Assembly (NCBI GenBank): GCA_018897105.1
Contig: JAHILF010000031.1
Coordinates: 7,632-71,631, forward strand
DNA: 64,000 nt
From: Pseudomonadota bacterium
GTDB taxonomy: Bacteria; Desulfobacterota; Desulfobulbia; Desulfobulbales; SURF-16
Direction of reading: 5' to 3'
Shown here: piece by piece, positions 27,097 to 38,041 of the stretch
Layout of the letters: each line of letters opens with the position of its first letter
How positions within the stretch are numbered: the first letter of the stretch is position 1
Program-made: the position numbers and the translations under genes
The notes under the pieces: generated by a model
What the model was told of the DNA's origin: nothing
The model's input: the letters and a program-made list of their open reading frames with translations, nothing else
Databases searched by the model: none

Positions 27097-28089
27097 CTAC
27101 AGGCGATCCAAGGGGCTTTGCAGGCGCTGAATATCCCGAGCCATGACATGGGTATAAATCTCTGTGGTCTTCACATCCGCATGGCCGAGGAGATCCTGGA
27201 GTACCCGTATGTTCACCCCCTGTTCCAGCAGATGGGTGGCGAAACTGTGGCGCAGGGTATGACAGCCGATTTTCTTGGTGATCCCAGCCCGTTGCGCCGC
27301 TACCTTTACCGCCTTTTGCAGCCCGGATTCAAGGACATGGTGGCGCATCTCTTTGCCGGAACGAGGATCAACGGAACGTTTTTGTGCCGGGAAAACCCAT
27401 TGCCAGCCGGTCTCCCGGGCGGCGTTGGGGTATTTTCTGGCCAGGGCATCGGGGATGTAGACTTCGCCGAAGCCTGCCTCCAGGTCCAGGTGATGGAGTT
27501 CTTTTACCTCCTCGACCTGAGCGCGCAGCTCATCCTGCAGATTCCGGGGTAGGATGGTGGTCCGGTCCTTGCCACCTTTGCCGCCCCGGACGAAGATAAG
27601 ATTCTGGCCGAAATCAACGTCCTGAATGCGCAGCCGGATGCATTCCATCAGACGCAGACCGCCGCCGTAGAGAATTCTGGCCATCAGGGCATGTTTGCCC
27701 GACATGGCCGCCAGCAGGCGCTGGACCTCCGACTGGGTCAGCACCGTTGGCGGCCTGGGCAGGCGTTTACTGCGGACGGGGGCGATCTCTCCGTCAATGG
27801 GCTGGTCGAGCACATCCCGATATAGGAAGACCAGCGCATTCAAGGCCTGCCGTTGCGTCGAGGCAGACACCTTGCCTTCGGTGGCGAGATGGGAAAGGAA
27901 ACTCTCCACATCCTTCCCCTGAAGCTTGGAGGGATGGGTTTTGCCGCCGAAGTGGTAAATATAGCGAAGAATCCACTGGCAATAGGTCTGTTCGGTTCGG
28001 TAGGCATAGTGATGGTACCGGAGAACCTCACGAACCTGGTCCATGAGTTTGAGTTTTGGATTGGGCAGGAATTTTGGTTTCTTTTCCAT
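27097..28089 (-). CDS. intI: Integron integrase
   Basis: HYAYRTEQTY, SASTQRQALNAL, YGGGLRLME, GKGGKDR, IntI-specific insert (VYIPDALARKYP...WQWVFP...RHH), HTLRHSFATHLL and TTEIYTHV. Confidence 0.97.
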   Translation of the reverse strand: MEKKPKFLPNPKLKLMDQVREVLRYHHYAYRTEQTYCQWILRYIYHFGGKTHPSKLQGKDVESFLSHLATEGKVSASTQRQALNALVFLYRDVLDQPIDGEIAPVRSKRLPRPPTVLTQSEVQRLLAAMSGKHALMARILYGGGLRLMECIRLRIQDVDFGQNLIFVRGGKGGKDRTTILPRNLQDELRAQVEEVKELHHLDLEAGFGEVYIPDALARKYPNAARETGWQWVFPAQKRSVDPRSGKEMRHHVLESGLQKAVKVAAQRAGITKKIGCHTLRHSFATHLLEQGVNIRVLQDLLGHADVKTTEIYTHVMARDIQRLQSPLDRL

Positions 28090-28101
28090 GATTCATACTT
28101 T

Positions 28102-28264
28102 AATATCGCAATAAGCGGAAAATCGCAAGCGATTATGTAATAAGTGGACAGCATGGAGTCTGATTTTCCATGTTTTATATTTCAATATCATAATAAGTGG
28201 AAATTCTGTCCATCTATATAAGGTAATATGATGGACAGCTTTCCGCTTATTACACTGTTAGTGC
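28102..28264 (+). other. attI site with repeated putative integrase-binding boxes
   Basis: Core G/TTAGTGC at 28257 matches R'' GCACTAAC of the first attC. AATAAGYGGA at 28110, 28139 and 28192, with an inverted copy at 28242. Confidence 0.75.
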
Positions 28265-28268
28265 CTGA

Positions 28269-28589
28269 ATGAATAATCCATTTGCAAGAATAATATTTGC
28301 TGTAATTTTTTTTCTTCTCCTTTGTGGGCTCTATTATTTGAGCGAAGGCACTGGTTTAGAAACTTTGATTTTTCTTGTAATTGGAGCTGTAATAGGAATT
28401 CCGAAGGGCCTTGCTCTTCCTATGAGTTTTACATACAAATTGGGGTATATTTTTGTTTTGGCTGGGTCAATTACTGCAATAACTGTAGGAATTAGAACAA
28501 AAAAAAATTTATTGGGACAATTGCTGGTATTTTTAGGAGTAGCAATTTGGTTTGCCTGTGGTTTTATAGGAATAATAATTGAAGGGTAA
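28269..28589 (+). CDS. Cassette 1: small multi-TM membrane protein of unknown function
   Basis: ATG about 12 bp after the attI core; about 4 hydrophobic helices; AT-rich; followed by attC. Confidence 0.8.
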   Translation: MNNPFARIIFAVIFFLLLCGLYYLSEGTGLETLIFLVIGAVIGIPKGLALPMSFTYKLGYIFVLAGSITAITVGIRTKKNLLGQLLVFLGVAIWFACGFIGIIIEG

Positions 28590-28611
28590 TATGTTGAAAT
28601 TTAACAAAAAA

Positions 28612-28698
28612 GCACTAACCAACACATCCACCAGACCAGAATGGCCTATGTTTTCTTATGCATCACCGTGGCTGGCTGGTGATGTTGGTCGATATGTG
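28612..28698 (+). other. attC site 1
   Basis: R'' GCACTAAC, 5-nt spacer, L'' CATCCACC (extra base), L' GGTGATG, 6-nt spacer, R' GATATGTG. Confidence 0.85.
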
Positions 28699-28707
28699 TA
28701 AAAAACT

Positions 28708-29448
28708 ATGGAAAGCTGCCTTGACCCTCTATTTGAATCGATATTCCCAATCATATTTTATGATGAGAAGGATTTGGTGAATGTTGCTGGCACATCAATA
28801 CTTGTTGAGCATAAAGGACAAAATTATCTATTAACGGCAGCGCATGTTCTTAAAGATCCAGGCAGCAAGTATCATCTATATGTTTTACTACGAGGTAAAG
28901 CTGTTCATCTTCATGATCCTGCGTTCATGAGTAAAATTCAAAAAACAGATATTGATACCGCCTTTTTCCCTTTGGCTTTCCATCCGACCTTAGAGACTCA
29001 TTTAACTGGTTATAAGACGATTACTCTCAAAGAATATGATGGAGATATAACGTATAGCAGAGAGCATTATTTTGTATTCGGCTTTCCATGGCGCAGAGCA
29101 AAATTCAACCGGACAGATAAGGAACTGAACGCTCGACCATTACAATATTTTACAGACATCATTGATGATAGTTCTTTGTTTTCAAAATACAACAGGCCTA
29201 AAGAAAGCCATATTTTGGTTCAATATAATCCAAAAACAACCACAAATAGGAATAAAATTAAACAATTGGCCCCACACCCTCATGGCATAAGTGGCGGTCC
29301 ATTGTTTAAAGCTCTTATTAACGATAGAGACGAAGTAATTCTTTTGATTCTTGAAGGACTTTTGATTGAGTGGAAAGACTCCCGTGTGATTGTCGCTACC
29401 AAAAAAGAAAAAATCCGAAATTTTATTGATGGTAAACCATTGCATTGA
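28708..29448 (+). CDS. Cassette 2 gene A: trypsin-like serine protease, no signal peptide
   Basis: Catalytic-triad motifs LLTAAHV, DIDTAF and GISGGPLF, plus FGFP. Confidence 0.85.
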   Translation: MESCLDPLFESIFPIIFYDEKDLVNVAGTSILVEHKGQNYLLTAAHVLKDPGSKYHLYVLLRGKAVHLHDPAFMSKIQKTDIDTAFFPLAFHPTLETHLTGYKTITLKEYDGDITYSREHYFVFGFPWRRAKFNRTDKELNARPLQYFTDIIDDSSLFSKYNRPKESHILVQYNPKTTTNRNKIKQLAPHPHGISGGPLFKALINDRDEVILLILEGLLIEWKDSRVIVATKKEKIRNFIDGKPLH

Positions 29449-29465
29449 CAGCAGGGGCTTAAAAA

Positions 29466-30227
29466 ATGACTAAAGACGAATGGAAAGAGCTTGTCAAAGG
29501 AATCTGTAACCAAAAAATTCTACCAAAACTTCGAAAAATTCATAGGAAGTATCACCCTTTTGAAATTTATGAAAGATTCCCATTCGGTGATAGAAGAATC
29601 TATAAGTCATCGCGCACAATACGCTTTATCGAAGAAAATTTTGATGATGACGACGATCTTACCAAAATTTTCAACACAGAATATCTCGGTAATACGCTTG
29701 ACAATCTTCGATGGGGTATCGAAAACAGCAATCGTCTCGTACTCAAAACTGGAATATCCGATGTTATCGAAGAGTTCTTTGAAGAAATAGTAGATGGGAT
29801 GGAAATTTCAGATATCCCGAATGTTGATTTTGATGCATTGAGGGAAGCTGGAAGCCAAGATCCGAAAAGTGAAATCCTTGTCTCAATGATCAGGACGAAA
29901 AAAATCAAAATGAAACTTCGTTACAATTCAAATTTGAATGAGAGTGAAATGCGCTACTCTCTTCATGAGAGCGAGAAAATAGTAGTTAGAAAAAAAGAGC
30001 AGTTAGAACACTGTGACAAAGATAACCCTCCCACTAAAAAGAAAATATTTAAGGGCTTAGGTGGGATATGCCGTGGGGCTATTCTAACGGGGGTTGATAT
30101 CGGTCTTTTGGCTGGGCTTTGGCCAGTTCCCCTTTCACCTGACACTACTACAGTCGGCGCGGTTGCATCTATTACTACCGGAGTTGGAGACATCATGATA
30201 GCTATTGGTGAGCTTCGGGGTGAATAA
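29466..30227 (+). CDS. Cassette 2 gene B: hypothetical protein with Gly-rich hydrophobic C-terminal hairpin
   Basis: 253-aa ORF 17 bp after the protease; charged body, then two hydrophobic Gly-rich segments. Confidence 0.8.
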   Translation: MTKDEWKELVKGICNQKILPKLRKIHRKYHPFEIYERFPFGDRRIYKSSRTIRFIEENFDDDDDLTKIFNTEYLGNTLDNLRWGIENSNRLVLKTGISDVIEEFFEEIVDGMEISDIPNVDFDALREAGSQDPKSEILVSMIRTKKIKMKLRYNSNLNESEMRYSLHESEKIVVRKKEQLEHCDKDNPPTKKKIFKGLGGICRGAILTGVDIGLLAGLWPVPLSPDTTTVGAVASITTGVGDIMIAIGELRGE

Positions 30228-30240
30228 AAAACAGAAGAAT

Positions 30241-30258
30241 CACATATCAAGTCAATTC
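30241..30258 (+). other. attC site 2, 5' remnant interrupted by IS256
   Basis: R'' CACATATC (exact complement of GATATGTG at 28691), spacer AAGTC, partial L'', then the IS left end. Confidence 0.75.
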
Positions 30259-31800
30259 GGTAGTGTAAAATTCTTTCTGTAAATTCCGTTGAGGCTGGTT
30301 ACAAAAAAGCAAGCCACGACTTATCTTTCCGTTTTTCACCCACCACGGTCAAAATCAGAAGGAGATCATCATGGCTTGCTTAACACAGGATACTCAATTT
30401 GGAGAGCTTTTGGAACTTGTAGCGTCAAAAGGGTTAGATGAAATTTCGGAGCCTGTTGCGCTGCTTTTCAATCTCGCAATGCGCTTGGAAAGAGAAAAAT
30501 ATCTCAAAGCCGGCGCCTATGAACGAACAGAGCAAAGGGAGGGCTATGCCAATGGCTTTAAGCCAAAGACGATCAAGACCAGGTTTGGCCAACTTGACCT
30601 TGCCGTGCCTCAGGTCAGAGACGGCGGCTTCTACCCCAATAGTCTTGAAAAAGGGATGCGTTCCGAACGTGCCTTGAAACTGGCCCTGGCTGAAATGTAT
30701 ATCCATGGCGTTTCCACCCGGAAAGTGGCGCGGATTACAGAACAAATGTGCGGCTTTGAAATCTCATCTGGCCAAGTGAGCAGGGCCTCTGCTGACCTTG
30801 ATGATCTCTTGGAAAAATGGCGAAATCGGCCATTGGGCTGCTTCCCTTATGTCTATTTGGATGCCATGTATGAAAAAGTTCGCCAAGGAGGTCAGGTCGT
30901 TGACTGTGCTGCATTGATTGCTATTGGCGTCGATGATACTGGCAGACGCCAAGTCTTGGGCGCCTCTGTCAAATTATCGGAACACGAGGTGCACTGGCGC
31001 TCGTTTCTGAATAGTTTGCAGAGCCGTGGGCTGCATGGCGTGCATTTATTTATAAGTGATGATCATGCCGGTCTGAAGGCTGCAAGAAAAGCGATTTTCC
31101 CAGCAACGCCTTGGCAACGGTGCCAGTTTCATCTACAACAAAATGCGCAGTCTTATGTCCCCAAAAAGTCATTAAAAAAAGGGGTGGCAGCGGAAATTCG
31201 GGCCATTTTTAATGCCCCGAGTGATACCGAAGCAAAACGCCTCGTGGGGTTGTTTGTTGATAAATATGAAAAGGTTGCCCCTCCTCTGTCTCAGTGGGCA
31301 GAAAAAAATATCCCGGAAGGGCTTGCTGCCATGCAGTTTCCCGAAGAGCACCAGAGGAAAATCCGAACTTCCAATATGCTTGAGCGGGTAAACAAAGAAG
31401 TCAGGAGGAGAACAAGGGTCGCTGGACTGTTTCCCAATGAAACATCATGCCTTCGGCTTATTAGTGCTGTACTTATGGAAATATCAGATGACTGGGCAAC
31501 AGGGAAAAAGTATTTAAAATTATGCCAATAGATGGCTCTTGGAGTCAGAAGTTTTTACTGCTTGCATACCCCTTCAACGCTTGAATCGGCTAGGGCCTCT
31601 TCCGTGCAACCAAGCTGTCGTATGCTCAAAGCGGATGGTATACAAGCAGTAAAAACTCACGCTCGTGCCTCCTTGCTCGTGATCCCCGGTTAAATGTTCA
31701 CGAGCGTAACCCCGACAAGAGATGAACTGTCGTTTGCGATATGAAAAAACGGGTGAGACCCGGGACGATTTGATTTTTACAGAAAAGAAGTTGCTTTATC
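30259..31800 (+). mobile_element. IS256-family insertion sequence
   Basis: Imperfect TIRs GGTAGTGTAAAATTCTTTCTGTAAA / TTTACAGAAAAGAAGTTGCTTTATC; no target duplication visible. Confidence 0.88.
30371..31531 (+). CDS. IS256-family DDE transposase
   Basis: EMYIHGVSTRKV, YLDAMYEKVR, ISDDHAGL, WQRCQFH and RTSNMLERVNKEVRRRT. Confidence 0.96.
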   Translation: MACLTQDTQFGELLELVASKGLDEISEPVALLFNLAMRLEREKYLKAGAYERTEQREGYANGFKPKTIKTRFGQLDLAVPQVRDGGFYPNSLEKGMRSERALKLALAEMYIHGVSTRKVARITEQMCGFEISSGQVSRASADLDDLLEKWRNRPLGCFPYVYLDAMYEKVRQGGQVVDCAALIAIGVDDTGRRQVLGASVKLSEHEVHWRSFLNSLQSRGLHGVHLFISDDHAGLKAARKAIFPATPWQRCQFHLQQNAQSYVPKKSLKKGVAAEIRAIFNAPSDTEAKRLVGLFVDKYEKVAPPLSQWAEKNIPEGLAAMQFPEEHQRKIRTSNMLERVNKEVRRRTRVAGLFPNETSCLRLISAVLMEISDDWATGKKYLKLCQ

Positions 31801-31922
31801 CAATACAAGAAAAAGACTTTGATATCGTGTTGCATTTTTTAAGAAAGTGGTGGCTAAATCATATCAGAATTGAAGACGTAAAATATGCATCTTATGTAAA
31901 AGAAAAACTTGAGGCGATCTAA
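31801..31922 (+). pseudogene. C-terminal fragment of a hemerythrin-like cassette gene
   Basis: FLRKWWLNHIRIEDVKY matches the bacteriohemerythrin C-terminal W..HI..ED..Y motif; 5' part missing; followed by attC. Confidence 0.75.
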
Positions 31923-31930
31923 TAGCAAAT

Positions 31931-32062
31931 CAGCTAACAAGGCACTGCACTGGAAAAAAAGGGGACAGGGGTTTGGGTTACTTCTCGGTACGCACCATGT
32001 TTATCTCTAATTCTATACATTTTGCTACGCACCCTTTTTTCCAGTGAGCTTTAACGTTCGAC
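31931..32062 (+). other. attC site 3
   Basis: R'' CAGCTAAC, spacer AAGGC, L'' ACTGCACT, stem GGAAAAAA/TTTTTTCC, L' AGTGAGC, 6-nt spacer, R' GTTCGAC. Confidence 0.88.
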
Positions 32063-32107
32063 GGCGACAAAATGGTTGTTGAGCGCAACTAAAAAAAGAG
32101 AAATTGA

Positions 32108-33217
32108 ATGAAAAAGAAATTATTAGCAGGATTGGCAACTGGACTATTTCTATTTGGAATGGTTGGAATAACACATGCAGTAATGATTGGTCAAGCCAAC
32201 AATGATCAAAATGTCAAAGAAAAAGTTAAGCCCCCGACAGATGATGACGCGAAGTTTAAAAGAGATCTTGTATTTTCAAATGATCTCATACGTGTTTATT
32301 CACGCCCTCCGCATATTAGCACTGTTATGGGAAAAACACTGGAAAGTTTTTCTGGATTTGACATCGAGTATGATTTCGAGCATGCAGACCGTGGAAAGTA
32401 TTTAAGCTCACAATACTTAGCCCAAATATTATTTCCACTTGCAAGAAAACACAGCGGTCGCTTACTTAGCAGAGAAGATACAGTAACAGTTTACTATTAT
32501 AAAAATGGAGAAACACATCATTGGGATTCAGTGGACTATTATTTTCCAGTTCAGGATTGGAATGGAAAGACTGCAAAATATGCAGAAATTAAACATCATT
32601 ATTTAGGTGAAGCAGCAGAAAAACAACAGAACAAATCAGATTCGTCATATTTAGGTGAGTGTGCGGTAAAAGGACCTTTCTGTGATCTGCCTGGTGGTAA
32701 ATATCTCAATGCAATTTATAGAAACGATACCAGAACCTTAGATGCTATGGATAGTAAATATGCTCTTAGAACAGATTCATTGCTTGTCCACATCGCTAAT
32801 CAATACATGTATGACTACGACAGGAAAACATACACTGGCTATTTTTTAAACACGGCTGCTGAGTGTTTTGAGTCCGGAGCCAGAACGAAAACATTTTCAA
32901 TGACAACAGATGTGGTCAACTACAAAACTCTATCAGGGTTAGATGCTGGCAGTGTTGGTGGTGACAGAGTAGCGTCAACCTATACTGTTAATGCAGAATT
33001 TTATCCGTTGCTCTTAAAGATTGGGAGTCATTTGGGTGGTAATATTGAAGAAGTAATCGCACAAAACCTGAATCTTAAGGGTATGAACATGGCACTGAAA
33101 GGAGCAAAACAGTTACAAATAAAGTACTCATGTAAAAGCAATGAGGTAAAGCAGTTTGAAAAGAATCTTATTTCTCTAACTGACCGGTTTCTTAAAAAGA
33201 AAAACTACAGTAGGTAG
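32108..33217 (+). CDS. Cassette gene: exported hypothetical protein
   Basis: Signal peptide MKKKLLAGLATGLFLFGMVGITHA; 369 aa; AT-rich; follows attC 3. Confidence 0.85.
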   Translation: MKKKLLAGLATGLFLFGMVGITHAVMIGQANNDQNVKEKVKPPTDDDAKFKRDLVFSNDLIRVYSRPPHISTVMGKTLESFSGFDIEYDFEHADRGKYLSSQYLAQILFPLARKHSGRLLSREDTVTVYYYKNGETHHWDSVDYYFPVQDWNGKTAKYAEIKHHYLGEAAEKQQNKSDSSYLGECAVKGPFCDLPGGKYLNAIYRNDTRTLDAMDSKYALRTDSLLVHIANQYMYDYDRKTYTGYFLNTAAECFESGARTKTFSMTTDVVNYKTLSGLDAGSVGGDRVASTYTVNAEFYPLLLKIGSHLGGNIEEVIAQNLNLKGMNMALKGAKQLQIKYSCKSNEVKQFEKNLISLTDRFLKKKNYSR

Positions 33218-33436
33218 TCAGGGAGAGCGCATGAAACTTGTAAATAAAATAAGCAGTTAATGTGTTAGGTGATTATAGCAATTATCTAAGATGAGGCCAA
33301 ATTGGGGTCGGGCGACGATAACTAAATGATATATTAAACAATGCCACATTTCCCTCACTGTAAGTAGCTTATATTACAAGACCACACAATCAAATTTGGG
33401 TCAAAATTGGCACTATACAACTCAAGCGGCAAAAAG

Positions 33437-33495
33437 CGCCGAACCAATAAGGATTGATGCGACGTCTTTTTGTCGCTTTCAATCCTTTGTTCAAG
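33437..33495 (+). other. Possible degenerate attC
   Basis: CGCCGAAC (7/8 complement of GTTCGACG), hairpin AAGGATTGA/TCAATCCTT, ends GTTCAAG; L'-R' spacing is atypical. Confidence 0.4.
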
Positions 33496-33605
33496 AGCCG
33501 CGATCGATCGAGTCTTTGGGGTATTGCTTCAGAGATGAAGATCCTGGGAAGAAAAAGTAAGGGGATATTTCTTGAGAAAGTTTGTTTTCGGCAGCGTGTG
33601 ACACT

Positions 33606-33651
33606 TGGGGTCAGGTCTTGAAATATAAGAATACGGCAATTCAAGACCTGA
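33606..33651. repeat. REP-like palindrome (GGGGTCAGGTCTTGAA type)
   Basis: TCAGGTCTTGAA at 33611-22 / TTCAAGACCTGA at 33640-51. Confidence 0.7.
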
Positions 33652-33875
33652 TAATCATCTAAAAGGCACCTCGCGGGAGCTGGTTTCAGCTCCCGGTGCG
33701 ACCGGAAAGGTTGGGGGGACATAAGCAGACAGGGTACGTCCATAAAATTATAAAATCATCAACATTCGCATACATTAGGCAGAAATCGTTGGCGTATCGT
33801 GTCGTCATATTTTGGGTAGCGCTTGCCTTATAGGCCTATTGGTGATACAAATAAAAGTACAATAGGAGGTACAGT

Positions 33876-34157
33876 ATGGGCAAGTTACCAAACATCATTC
33901 CGGTGAGCGATTTGAGGCAGGATGCCGCCAAACTCCTGAAACAATTGCGTAACAATAAAGAACCTTTGATTATTACACAAAGAGGTCGGGCAACAGCGGT
34001 CATAATCGGTGTGGATGCCTATGAGCAATCTGAACACGAAAAAGAACTTTTGCGTCTTTTAGTAAAGGGAGAGAGGGAAATAGAAATAGGCGAAGGATAC
34101 GACTTGGATACTGTCCTTGCCGAAGCCGACGTCCTTTTAGCCAAGGAACCTTCGTGA
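33876..34157 (+). CDS. Phd/YefM-family antitoxin
   Basis: IIPVSDLRQDAA and PLIITQRGRATAV. Confidence 0.93.
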   Translation: MGKLPNIIPVSDLRQDAAKLLKQLRNNKEPLIITQRGRATAVIIGVDAYEQSEHEKELLRLLVKGEREIEIGEGYDLDTVLAEADVLLAKEPS

Positions 34158-34444
34158 AGGTTCAATTTACACCTTCTGCCCGAACCCAATTTCTTTCCGC
34201 GCTATCTTATATCCGAAAGGACAAACCTTCTGCAGCAGTCAGTTTTCGGAATCAAGCTGAAAAAATTCTGCGCCGGCTTGAGGATTTTCCTGAATCCGGA
34301 AGAATCATACCGGAATTTCCTGATCTCCCTTACCGAGAGGTGATTCTATCGCCGTACCGGTTTTTTTACAAAATCAAAGGCGATGTCGTTTGGGTTGTTG
34401 CAGTGTGGCATGGCGCGCAGCTTCCAAAGAAGCCGGTAACTTAA
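34154..34444 (+). CDS. RelE/ParE-family toxin
   Basis: VQFTPSA, LEDFPESGR, YRFFY and VAVWHGA; 4-bp overlap with the antitoxin. Confidence 0.93.
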   Translation: MKVQFTPSARTQFLSALSYIRKDKPSAAVSFRNQAEKILRRLEDFPESGRIIPEFPDLPYREVILSPYRFFYKIKGDVVWVVAVWHGAQLPKKPVT

Positions 34445-34777
34445 CGCCGACCATGGCACAGTCATACCCGGTTTAGGCCGTGGTAGTGTCAACTTTTTTG
34501 TGTGAAATTATTCCAAGCCGATTCCTTGAGGGGCGGCAGGTTTTTCCGCACTTTCCCAATAGTAAAATCAGGTAACACCTTACTTAATTCGGTATGGAGT
34601 GTCCCCGGAATTCGAGGACTTTTTCTACAAACTCTTCGAGTTTGTAGAAGTAAAATTACTTTCGTAACTGCAAAATCTCAACATACAAAACTCCGATAAC
34701 TTTTTGACAATGCGAAAAAATAGAGAAATAATCGATTACAAGCACTGTCTAACAAATCAAATAATAAGGAGGTCACT

Positions 34778-35377
34778 ATGTATGCAGTAGCCATAAACGG
34801 AAGTCCACGCAAAGGCGGGAATACTGAATTACTCCTCAAAGAGGTTCTCAGCGAACTTCATGATGCCGGCTGGGAAACAGAGCTTGTAAAGGTTGGCGGA
34901 ACAGCAATTCGCGGTTGTATTGCCTGTGATAAATGTTTCAAAAATAAAGACAATCAATGCGCCACGAAAAAGGATAAATTTAACGAGATCTATGCAAAAA
35001 TGCTGAAGGCTGATGCCATGATTCTCGGCTCCCCAACCTACTTTGCCGCGGTATCTGCTGATTTAAAGGCATTAATTGAAAGAGCAGGTTATGTTGCTTA
35101 TGCCAACAATAACGCTTTTTCCGGAAAAATTGGGGCAGCGGTTGTGGCAGTGAGACGGGGCGGAGCCACCCATGTATATGATACCATTAACCATATGTTC
35201 CAAATGTCAAGAATGATTATGCCTGGCTCAACCTACTGGAATATGGGCTATGGCCTCAACAAAGGAGAGGTTCTGGAAGATAAAGAAGGCCTGGCTAACA
35301 TGCGCCACCTTGGAAAATGCATTGATTGGCTTGGCAAGGCCATTGAACCCACTATTGCCAACTATCCAAGGTCCTAG
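34778..35377 (+). CDS. Iron-sulfur flavoprotein / flavodoxin-family protein
   Basis: NGSPRKGGNT, CIACDKC...C, GSPTYF and VRRGG. Confidence 0.92.
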   Translation: MYAVAINGSPRKGGNTELLLKEVLSELHDAGWETELVKVGGTAIRGCIACDKCFKNKDNQCATKKDKFNEIYAKMLKADAMILGSPTYFAAVSADLKALIERAGYVAYANNNAFSGKIGAAVVAVRRGGATHVYDTINHMFQMSRMIMPGSTYWNMGYGLNKGEVLEDKEGLANMRHLGKCIDWLGKAIEPTIANYPRS

Positions 35378-35409
35378 CTTTTCTATGTAAAAATTACAAG
35401 GAGTAGATC

Positions 35410-35682
35410 ATGACACAGATTAAAGAGGGTGTTTGTGAGGAATGTGGTAAAAATTACAGTGATATTACCACGGTCTGCGGCCATTGCGGCTATTCCCCCC
35501 ATGGGGCAACCCTCATGGCAAATGAGGATCCGTATTGGAAGTGCGGGGAGTGCGGCAGAACCGTTCAAGCTGCAAACCCACCGGAAAAATGCCCAAGCTG
35601 CGATGAAATTTGTGATTTCAAAAATATCACCTGCTACGCTCCTGAATGCGGTGGGCCGGGAAATATTGATCCGCAGCTTTGA
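35410..35682 (+). CDS. Cys-rich rubredoxin-like protein
   Basis: Multiple CxxC motifs; WKCGECG...PPEKCPSC...TCYAPECGG. Confidence 0.8.
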   Translation: MTQIKEGVCEECGKNYSDITTVCGHCGYSPHGATLMANEDPYWKCGECGRTVQAANPPEKCPSCDEICDFKNITCYAPECGGPGNIDPQL

Positions 35683-35858
35683 TGTTACACGGTGGCTCTT
35701 GGTCACAGCTTCCCTGGCCACATCTTAGAGTATTTGGCAAAGCACTTGGGGGCACCCATTTTCACATGCCCCTCATTTTCAGATCCTTTTGCTCACCAAG
35801 GCACCATGACCCTACTGCGTCCTCAGGATTTATACTCATTTCATGCCCAGGAGATTTC

Positions 35859-36299
35859 ATGAAAAAATTGACTCTTTTTCTGTCCATGGTGTTTGCCTCT
35901 TCCCTCGTATTATCCGCTCAACCGGTACTGAGTAAATTATACCGGTGGGTCGATGATAACGGAAATATACGTGTTACCGATTATCCTCCGCCATCAAGCT
36001 CAAGCGCAGGTCGTAACGATCCAACGCCACAAGCTCCTGTTGCCCGTCAACAGGTTGAGCTCTATATCACCAGCTGGTGCCCTTACTGTAGAAAAGCGGA
36101 AGATTTTTTCCGTGCCCGTGGAATTCCTTTTAAGTCCTATGACATTGAAAAGGATAAGGAGGCAGCAGCCAGGAAAAATCAGCTTGATAAGGAAGGCGGT
36201 GTGCCTTTTGCCGTCATAAACGGTTTCACCATTCATGGTTTTAACCCGGAAGTGTATGCAGATGCGCTTAGGGACTCGGAAAATGCCAAAATACCCTAA
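35859..36299 (+). CDS. DUF4124 + glutaredoxin-domain exported protein
   Basis: Signal peptide, LYRWVDDNG, WCPYC and GGVP. Confidence 0.88.
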   Translation: MKKLTLFLSMVFASSLVLSAQPVLSKLYRWVDDNGNIRVTDYPPPSSSSAGRNDPTPQAPVARQQVELYITSWCPYCRKAEDFFRARGIPFKSYDIEKDKEAAARKNQLDKEGGVPFAVINGFTIHGFNPEVYADALRDSENAKIP

Positions 36300-36449
36300 C
36301 GCATCCCGTCTTCAGGCCATCTTTGGCCGTGCCTCAATCGCAAAATCCTCGCCGGAACACTGCTACGCCTGCGGTTTTGCTCAATCGGCGCAACCAAATC
36401 TGACCCAAATCCGGGCGCGATCCAGGTAAATTAACATTTTCCGAGTCCC
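36271..36449. mobile_element. MITE with perfect 15-bp TIRs and TTA target duplication
   Basis: TTA|GGGACTCGGAAAATG...CATTTTCCGAGTCCC|TTA. Confidence 0.88.
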
Positions 36450-36553
36450 TTAAAAGACAATAAAGCGGAAAAGGGGACAGATTTTTTTAGTTTTTAGACC
36501 CCACAGACACCAGGTGATCCAGGCATTAAATTTCTGAAGGAGGAAAAAATCAA

Positions 36554-36859
36554 ATGAGAATTTCAGACTGGCTGGATAAAAAGGAAGCGGAGAAGGTGGA
36601 TGTATCTCAAATCGCCTTGCCTACAGATATGTCTTATGATGAAGTCCCGGATGAAACTATTTTTTTCAAAGAGATTAATCCTTGCGGGTTTCTCTGTAAC
36701 GAGAATCATCCCTTTTCCAAGGTCGAACTCTTTGGCCACTGGTATTACTGTAGAGGTCAGGACAAAAAAGCAGGTATTCATTCATCAGAAATGAAGTGGA
36801 GGCTGTTTACCAAGGACAAAGATCTTGCTCTGCAAACGGCTAAAGCACACATAGAATAA
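36554..36859 (+). CDS. Hypothetical protein
   Basis: Strong RBS AAGGAGG; stop 3 bp before the next gene. Confidence 0.75.
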   Translation: MRISDWLDKKEAEKVDVSQIALPTDMSYDEVPDETIFFKEINPCGFLCNENHPFSKVELFGHWYYCRGQDKKAGIHSSEMKWRLFTKDKDLALQTAKAHIE

Positions 36860-36862
36860 AAA

Positions 36863-38041
36863 ATGAGCAAACATTCCCCAATTAAAACTGCAGCATCCTT
36901 TATTTTCCTCATCGTTCTTGTGGTCGGCTTGTCAACCGTGTCCAACCGGATATGGGGCGGCAAACCCGAAGCCGCACCTGAGTCCAAGGAGCTGGTGATC
37001 GAACCGGGAATGACCGTTGCCCGGTTCGGCCAGGTCAACGAACTGCCGAATCCGGTTTTAAAGGAGATCTTTGGTTTGCAAGACAAAGCTGATCTGCAAA
37101 AAGAATTAACAGCATACGGTCCAACAGAGCAGATTGCCTCCAGGGTGAAAGGGAAACTTGCCCTGGCTGCGGAACATGGCAGCAAGAACTGGATCAAAAT
37201 CCCGGTAAAGTTTGGCCTCTGGTTTGTCTTTCTCACCTCGGTTTTCTTTCTTATGGGGAAACGCAGGGTGACTCCGGGGCTGAGAAACGGGACGCTTCTT
37301 GCCTCGATCTTTCTATTCGGCATTGCCCTGGGAGCAGACCCCAGCCCCATGGGAACGGTCAAGGATGCCATTCACCTTTATGCAACCAGCCATGTCATCT
37401 TTCCGCCCCGCATGATCGCCCTTGCCGTGTTTCTGGCAATCATTTTTCTGGCCAATAAATATATCTGCGCCTGGGGTTGCCAGGCCGGCACCCTGCAGGA
37501 TCTGCTTTTCCGCATCAACCGGACCGACAAAGCAAAGGCGGTCATCGGCAGACAGATCAAACTGCCCTTTGCCCTGACCAACACCATTCGCTGCATATTC
37601 CTCCTGCTGTTTACCATTATCTCATTTTCCTCCGGCTTTGATATCATTGACCCCATCGACCCGTTCAAGATCTTCAAACCGGCATATCTGGGACTTTTCG
37701 GCGGTATTTTTGTCGGTGTCCTTCTTCTTGCCGGCCTGTTTGTTTACCGGCCCTGGTGCCACCTTTTCTGTCCCTTTGGTCTGGCCGGCTGGCTTATGGA
37801 AAAAACAAGCCGCGTCAGAATAAGCGTTGACTATGAAACATGCATTGCCTGCGGGAAGTGTGCTGCCGCCTGCCCTTCCACGGTCATGGGCGCTATTTTA
37901 AAACGCGACAAGAAAACCATACCGGACTGCTTTGCGTGCTATACATGTCGGGAAGTGTGTCCCACGGATTCCATCCGTTTTTCCACCCGCAAAAGAACAT
38001 TGCCGCCGACCGGTCATTTTGAAAAAACAACCAATCAATAA
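36863..38041 (+). CDS. Membrane polyferredoxin (NapH/FixG-like 4Fe-4S protein)
   Basis: TM helices, CAWGCQAG, RPWCHLFCPFG and two CxxCxxCxxxCP motifs. Confidence 0.9.
   Translation: MSKHSPIKTAASFIFLIVLVVGLSTVSNRIWGGKPEAAPESKELVIEPGMTVARFGQVNELPNPVLKEIFGLQDKADLQKELTAYGPTEQIASRVKGKLALAAEHGSKNWIKIPVKFGLWFVFLTSVFFLMGKRRVTPGLRNGTLLASIFLFGIALGADPSPMGTVKDAIHLYATSHVIFPPRMIALAVFLAIIFLANKYICAWGCQAGTLQDLLFRINRTDKAKAVIGRQIKLPFALTNTIRCIFLLLFTIISFSSGFDIIDPIDPFKIFKPAYLGLFGGIFVGVLLLAGLFVYRPWCHLFCPFGLAGWLMEKTSRVRISVDYETCIACGKCAAACPSTVMGAILKRDKKTIPDCFACYTCREVCPTDSIRFSTRKRTLPPTGHFEKTTNQ

Follow-up and report, generated by a model that had tools for sequence, protein, structure and literature searches.

A bare trypsin-fold protease and an unnamed, putative membrane effector encoded side by side in an integron array

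Introduction

In bacterial gasdermins encoded next to proteases, it is proteolysis that frees the pore former (10.1101/2021.06.07.447441), and the effectors of the trypsin-MBL modules (Canu / Hachiman-MBL) are death effectors activated by a protease (10.1101/2025.09.03.673762). For two further pore formers, Pepco (Trypco) and EACC1, the proteases are described as sensor-fused, and the pairing of effector and protease is reported to be conserved across the modules surveyed in the same study (PMC12642450). As for integrons, the cassettes of sedentary arrays were found to carry one- and two-gene defence systems, membrane effectors among them (Darracq et al., 10.1101/2024.07.02.601686).

Here, we analyse a pair of genes from a 64,000-nt stretch of DNA (referred to throughout as the window, whose positions are used below) of a Desulfobulbales bacterium of the SURF-16 lineage (GenBank assembly GCA_018897105.1, contig JAHILF010000031.1). 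An earlier note on this DNA had proposed that the two genes, encoding a cytoplasmic trypsin-like protease and a putative membrane effector (the partner hereafter), share one integron cassette and form an anti-phage system in which the protease may release a pore-forming fragment upon infection. The locus does resemble the known protease-effector modules (gasdermin, Pepco, EACC1, MBL) in that a protease gene directly adjoins the gene of a small, non-enzymatic and possibly membrane-damaging protein. However, it departs from them in two ways: the protease is bare, whereas for theirs a fusion to sensors (Avs, TPR, Hachiman and others) has been described, and the pairing is missing from all nine of the other partner loci examined. 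The partner itself, for which an all-alpha model with a helical hairpin was obtained, has neither the gasdermin fold nor, as far as can be judged from published descriptions, the 117-aa beta-barrel of Pepco or the beta-rich architecture of EACC1.

Two other families of systems come close on the side of the protease, since no library entries match the protease family more closely than Lamassu LmuA and the RT-Protease_XI of type XI retrons. Unlike Lamassu, however, the two-gene cassette contains no SMC-like LmuB and no LmuC, and the match to LmuA is short and N-terminal only; unlike type XI retrons, it has no reverse transcriptase or msr/msd-type neighbour. On the side of the setting, the locus is reminiscent of the Sucellos/RexAB-like pair, Epona and Brigantia, which are one- or two-gene integron cassettes with a small transmembrane effector (10.1101/2024.07.02.601686), although no sequence relation to these has been shown, and the main text of that study mentions no protease or peptidase (its supplements may list more). 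Within the limited coverage of our literature search, neither the partner family nor a pairing of this protease with this partner was found described.

A tight operon within an integron array

The two genes lie downstream of an integron integrase gene and its attI region, in array orientation, which is the position of integron cassettes (Table 1). The sequence between 28161 and 28260 is common to contigs from four metagenome runs and is followed by different sequence beyond that point; the attI crossover was therefore placed where the contigs part, which also shows that related populations carry other first cassettes at attI. The G+C content is 36-39% in the cassette region versus 58% in intI.

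Table 1. Features of the locus, in positions of the window.
Feature	Position	Strand	Evidence or remark
intI, integron integrase	27097..28089	-	TIGR02249, 440.1 bits vs cut-off 265; Pfam Phage_integrase and Phage_int_SAM_4 also match
attI region	28161..28260	+	crossover GTTA at about 28257-28260, where metagenome contigs diverge
First cassette, 106-aa membrane protein	28269..28589		attC-like site 28617-28690 at its end
attC-like site of the preceding cassette	28617..28690	+	R'' AACCAAC, R' GTTGGTC; delimits the protease cassette on its 5' side
Trypsin-fold serine protease, 246 aa, probably cytoplasmic	28708..29448	+	Trypsin_2; H46/D83/S195; LmuA match in relatives; stop codon 29446-29448
Spacer, 17 nt	29449..29465	+	AGGGG ribosome-binding-like motif 8 nt before the partner ATG, read from the sequence
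Partner, all-alpha, 253 aa, unnamed family	29466..30227	+	profile searches, AlphaFold2 model
Coding region of the Gly-rich two-helix C-terminal hairpin (residues 197-253)	30054..30224	+	conservation 0.84; model helices
IS256-family insertion sequence	30259..31570	+	NF033543, 369 bits; transposase 30371..31531; outside the system

The 5' border of the cassette is marked by an attC-like site. The protease gene starts 18 nt past this site, which had the top score among R''/R' pairs whose inner arms also pair when 28090-38000 was scanned, and which folds into an imperfect hairpin (z-score -1.9). It was the sole site returned by the strict attC scan; the remaining attC calls mentioned in this work come from folding and inspection, without a dedicated attC model. 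Between the two co-directional ORFs, which are located as the earlier note had reported, there are only 17 nt, so no attC can fit there.

The 3' border is less clear. An IS256-family element begins 31 nt past the partner stop codon; its left end was set by means of a contig in which it has another left flank, its terminal inverted repeats are imperfect, and a search for a target-site duplication at the locus found none. No 3' attC is recognizable between the partner stop and the start of the element, the next attC-like site being at about 31933-32056, past the element and a 66-aa ORF, and none of the metagenome contigs that were mapped spans the 3' end of the partner without the insertion. The evidence for a cassette is on its upstream side (intI, attI and the 5' attC-like site), and its extent on the 3' side is putative. 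What is supported is that protease and partner form one tight operon within an integron array. This array also includes a Phd/ParE pair, located 3.6 kb downstream.

A bare protease of a type used in defence

The protein encoded by the first gene matches the Pfam family Trypsin_2 with an E-value of 3.5e-5 and 25 bits, i.e. just below the gathering cut-off of 27.6, and the same family is matched (E<=0.01) by 14 of its 19 aligned relatives, at best with 2.1e-7. A sequence-profile search of the PDB gave weak matches to chymotrypsin-type proteases (best E 0.1). The catalytic residues H46, D83 and S195, in His-Asp-Ser order and within motifs of the TAAH and G-x-S-G-G types, are invariant in all 19 relatives, so the triad is as intact as the earlier note had read it. 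The same note had seen no signal peptide, and inspection and hydropathy agree with it: because the protein opens with an acidic N-terminus that lacks a hydrophobic leader (the maximum 19-residue value is 1.28), it is likely to be cytoplasmic.

The defence connection comes from profile matches across the family. The PADLOC model for LmuA (PDLC03855) matches 17 of 19 members (best E 1.2e-7), and the retron RT-Protease_XI models match three of the 19. In the window protease itself, the LmuA match covers residues 24-56 only, around the catalytic His, which corresponds to positions 14-47 of a 425-position model. These matches support the view that the protease is of a type used by defence systems. 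It is a bare 246-aa domain with no sensor domain, and a search for longer or fused forms found none, which is weak evidence. The family is small: a word-indexed search yielded 18 clusters, of which 15 are at 42-91% identity. Viral contigs contained one distant relative of the protease, while records of cultured phages gave no match for either the protease or the partner. In 401 genomes from the order of genome G401, the protease was present in two, namely G401 and G402 themselves.

A widespread partner family without a name

The earlier note had not recognized the family of the second protein, and we can only concur: the partner belongs to no Pfam, NCBIfam, PADLOC or PHROG family, and in 72 diverse members of its family no Pfam or PADLOC family was found throughout the set. 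This family is nevertheless large. With representatives taken at 50% identity, an exhaustive profile search retrieved 313 of them at E<=1e-3; 193 of these also pass E<=1e-10, and 64 pass E<=1e-30. Among the 150 representatives listed, 88 are 240-280 aa long, 34 are shorter than 200 aa (mostly fragments) and two exceed 340 aa; a fusion to an Mrr_N domain is seen in one long member. In 401 genomes from the phylum of the window, the partner occurs in one, which is the window's own. Searches of viral contigs with two different partner alignments found no relative.

The architecture described in the earlier note was recovered in full. A charged body (33 K+R and 36 D+E in residues 1-185) is followed by a basic stretch, PPTKKKIFK, and then by two moderately hydrophobic, Gly-rich segments (about 198-224 and 230-250), which would form a C-terminal hairpin. 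The last 57 residues are the best conserved, with a mean column identity of 0.84 as against 0.59-0.73 for the body, and G204 and S235 are invariant in the 72 diverse members. An AlphaFold2 model built from 22 sequences is all-alpha, with 12 helices (pLDDT 86.6, pTM 0.87), the hairpin being formed by helices 198-215 and 227-250. Taken together, the partner looks like a membrane effector. Structural comparison gave no closer identification: Foldseek found nothing in the PDB at E<=0.001 (best E 0.4; query-normalized TM-score at most 0.27 among the matches listed), and the ESM Atlas returned unnamed clusters (best score 0.86) that offer no lead. A PDB sequence-profile search with the partner family had AcrIIA5 as its best match (E 0.0057, 19 bits), which was judged to be due to chance.

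Glycine-zipper membrane toxins and channels are characterized by Gly-x3-Gly-type spacing of small residues in short hydrophobic helices. The partner hairpin is glycine-zipper-like in its small-residue spacing and also has conserved polar residues, D211 and D242; this is to be taken as a lead only, and the Pfam glycine-zipper families do not match the partner at E<=1. As for the basic stretch, it had been regarded as the linker at which the protease might cut. It is, however, kept across the family while all the other family loci examined are without the protease, and is for this reason more likely to be a feature of the membrane interface than a cleavage site.

A young and narrow pairing

The earlier note had itself proposed co-occurrence of homologues as the check that could refute the system, and the outcome does not support the proposal. 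Nine other partner loci were available (L001-L007, L020 and L021; seven metagenome contigs and two Streptomyces plasmids), with 347 to about 6000 nt of upstream space. None of the nine has a match to the protease family, whether by tblastn or by profile at E<=1. Conversely, no match to the partner HMM was found in any of nine other protease loci (L008-L014, L017 and L018), and none of the 150 listed representatives of the partner family matches the protease profile, even at E<=10. The conserved pairing of effector and protease, which is a feature of the published modules, is thus not seen here.

Where the pair does occur, it is within a small group of close relatives. Apart from the window, these are a relative at 91% identity and a degraded copy. 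The former consists of a partner cluster (P0001) and a protease cluster (P0030), each 91% identical to the window, which are the one pair of clusters on contigs of equal size (5694 nt), so that they are neighbours by inference. What is left in the degraded copy (L009) is the C-terminal half of the protease (80% identity) and, after about 55 nt of spacer, the 28 codons with which the partner begins. The gene order is the same in all three, which speaks for retention of the pair and against a chance side-by-side placement. No partner-family gene was found elsewhere in the genomes that carry L008 and L009. In the partner tree, the window and P0001 form a clade (support 100/99) that lies inside a set of lineages for which no protease was seen. 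The protease tree places relatives at 58-67% identity nearest. From the loci, the cluster tables and the trees, the pairing is best read as young and narrow, being confined to a clade of at least 80% identity.

The partner is well able to travel alone. Relatives at 28-71% identity occur alone between or beside attC-like sites. In the closest of these (L003, 71% identity), the partner is set apart from its neighbours by attC-like sites, one of which stands between it and a candidate PDC-M34A/B system, whose two proteins were identified with E-values of 1e-77 and 2e-82; in L005, there are attC-like sites on both sides of the partner; and in L004 and L007, one such site lies just downstream of it. 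These sites indicate that, at other loci, the partner makes up a cassette by itself. The two copies on Streptomyces plasmids adjoin transposase or integrase genes and have no protease. Other neighbours of relatives include an AbiJ-like protein, an HNH protein and a methyltransferase, supporting the notion that defence-type and mobile-element genes abound around the relatives.

In L008, which encodes a protease at 50% identity, a two-gene cassette between near-identical attC-like sites contains the protease gene and, downstream of it and overlapping with it, a gene whose product is a C-terminally membrane-anchored MMR_HSR1 GTPase-DUF697 protein. A protease followed by a membrane-anchored protein was hence found in both of the independent close contexts with readable flanks, which is a hint, from two contexts only, that the protease works with membrane-anchored partners. 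In the contexts covered for the close protease clade, which are those of two of 15 close relatives (all but P0031-P0038 and P0040-P0044), the protease never formed a cassette by itself. The partner hairpin and the DUF697 region of L008 show no detectable homology (hhalign probability 1%).

How the two proteins might act

The reading that we prefer, tentatively and with somewhat less than even confidence, is that two separately mobile conflict-type genes were recently joined in one integron cassette, the partner being an effector that acts on the membrane by itself, in abortive infection or as a toxin. In this scenario, the partner would be an all-alpha protein of about 250 aa, tail-anchored by its Gly-rich hairpin, which follows a basic, aromatic interface motif. 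Its cytoplasmic helical body might sense a trigger or hold the hairpin back; once triggered, the hairpins would insert or oligomerize in the inner membrane, which would be depolarized, and growth would stop, as it does in abortive infection or under the action of a toxin. The protease would be a bare trypsin-fold module that resembles the effector domains of LmuA and type XI retrons and has no sensor of its own. The genes would be co-transcribed here, the partner family would be independent of the protease, and any cooperation between the two would be a lineage-specific add-on. The autonomous-effector part of this reading draws on the family-wide conservation of linker and hairpin, on defence-type neighbours on cassettes, plasmids and islands, and on the Mrr_N fusion. 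That the partner is most likely self-sufficient, to judge from its distribution, follows from the occurrence of its family without the protease elsewhere, often as a single-gene cassette. The analysis thus shows the structure of the genes, their integron setting, the sizes of the families, the lack of co-occurrence and the recent origin of the pairing, from which we infer membrane action, a defence role and any interplay between protease and partner.

It is possible, though doubtful, that the protease instead acts as a lineage-specific gate, i.e. that it would cut the partner, near the basic linker or in the body, and so free the hairpin, which would permeabilize the membrane on infection; the protease would then be a portable trigger for different membrane-anchored effectors. 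Such a role would fit the tight operon, in which the 17-nt spacer holds a motif resembling a ribosome site, the gene order, which recurs in the remnant L009 and in the relative at 91% identity, and the association of the protease in L008 with an unrelated membrane-anchored GTPase-DUF697 protein. It would have precedents, since protease-activated pore formers are established in gasdermins (10.1101/2021.06.07.447441) and are described for Pepco and EACC1 (PMC12642450). However, it seems difficult to reconcile with a partner family that lacks the protease in nine of nine other loci and has no protease fusions among its 150 listed representatives. Moreover, nothing in the partner distinguishes the paired clade, in which the protein is 251-253 aa long and has the same linker as in relatives that are 70-78% identical, for a minority of which the context is known. 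The protease has no sensor, and no longer fused forms of it were found, whereas the published modules are described as having sensor-fused proteases and conserved pairing (PMC12642450), and the want of detectable homology between the partner hairpin and the DUF697 region gives no sign of a shared hairpin module.

A bolder combination of these ideas, which we consider unlikely, is that the partner family would represent a new, widespread class of single-gene, tail-anchored membrane death effectors, of a fold for which no relative has been solved, that are shuttled from one bacterium to another as integron cassettes, and that the bare protease would be a portable trigger for unrelated membrane-anchored effectors (the partner here, the GTPase-DUF697 protein in L008), the whole amounting to a minimal, sensor-less, protease-gated suicide.

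It is improbable that the genes form an addiction pair, akin to a toxin-antitoxin system, that would stabilize the array, with a membrane toxin held in check through continuous cleavage or binding by the protease, or with the roles reversed. Toxin-antitoxin pairs are common among the two-gene cassettes of integron arrays, a Phd/ParE pair lies 3.6 kb downstream in this very array, and an order with the neutralizer first would fit; nevertheless, relatives of the partner persist as single-gene cassettes without a neutralizer, which implies that they are not constitutively toxic, and domain searches revealed no known antitoxin fold or DNA-binding domain in either protein. There is similarly little to recommend a non-defence origin, in which two unrelated accessory genes (e.g. 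one with a membrane-stress or envelope function and one for a housekeeping-type protease) would have come to share a cassette after the loss of an attC, for although no experiment links either family to phages, neither is itself a component of a PADLOC system (bar the domain-level LmuA match) and the functions of most integron cassettes are unknown (10.1101/2024.07.02.601686), there is no attC remnant in the spacer of the window (17 nt) or of L009 (about 55 nt), many of the genes around relatives are of the defence or mobile-element type, and one member of the partner family is fused to Mrr_N.

Concluding remarks

What is left of the proposed two-gene anti-phage system is a tight operon, a protease of a defence type and a partner that resembles a membrane effector; what is not supported is the idea of a dedicated, co-evolved pair. 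At most, the locus would be one more instance of a protease beside a membrane effector, which is a known arrangement, and more probably it brings together two independent cassette-borne conflict genes. The more interesting object is the partner family, which is large, unnamed and mobile, and which has no solved structural relative.

If neither of the two main readings is true, this is an ordinary pair of uncharacterized cassette genes. If the protease does gate the partner, the two would constitute the smallest known protease-effector module, lately assembled from free-standing parts, and would as such bear on the origin of modular defence systems. If, on the other hand, the proteins of the partner family are membrane effectors complete in themselves, the small one-gene systems banked by integrons would gain a family that is sizeable and unnamed.

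Variation and possible rearrangement of the cassette array

A stretch at 28161-28260, which contains attI, is common to contigs from four groundwater metagenome runs, with 19 differences, while the sequence beyond it differs. This pattern of a match followed by divergence shows that, in related populations, the integron platform carries other first cassettes. In the window, the protein encoded by the first cassette (see the table below) belongs to no family in Pfam or PADLOC, and its sole NCBIfam match is sub-threshold (E 2.6e-4; 20 bits against a cut-off of 475).

Features of the array in the window
Feature	Position	Description
First cassette	28269-28589	Codes for a 106-aa protein, hydrophobic along its whole length
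IS256-family element	30259-31570	Begins 31 nt past the stop codon of the partner gene
369-aa protein	32108-33217	N-terminus signal-peptide-like
Phd/YefM antitoxin and ParE toxin pair	33876-34444	Lies in this array, which is low in GC; Pfam matches at E 6e-17 and 5e-16

A target duplication was looked for around the IS256-family element and none was found, an inverted copy (21 nt, 95% complementary) of its right end is present 66 nt downstream at 31637-31657, and its left end recurs at 80% identity beyond the ParE gene, at 34482-34506. Taken together, these three features suggest that the array has been rearranged by IS-mediated events. The 369-aa protein is without a family in Pfam, NCBIfam, PADLOC or PHROG.

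Relatives of the partner and of the protease

Relatives of the partner occur in other settings. In locus L003, a relative without the protease is found immediately downstream of an integron cassette (158-1399 of that locus) encoding PDC-M34A/B, a PADLOC candidate defence system made of a DUF5343 protein and a Swt1-like HEPN protein. Another member of the family, P0114 (448 aa), begins with a winged-helix domain that Pfam assigns to Mrr_N (E 8e-18), so that here the membrane-hairpin protein is joined to a domain of DNA-recognition type.

As for the protease, the genome from which the window comes has a second, distant member of the family on another contig (L017, 1480-2145; 27% identity, E 1.1e-4), close to the contig end. 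In a Desulfobacterales MAG (L008, 173-2213), the gene of a relative sharing 50% identity runs into one that encodes an MMR_HSR1 GTPase carrying a DUF697 membrane domain, the two overlapping. Near-identical long attC-like sites border this protease and GTPase-DUF697 pair, which makes it a second kind of two-gene cassette in which the protease comes first.
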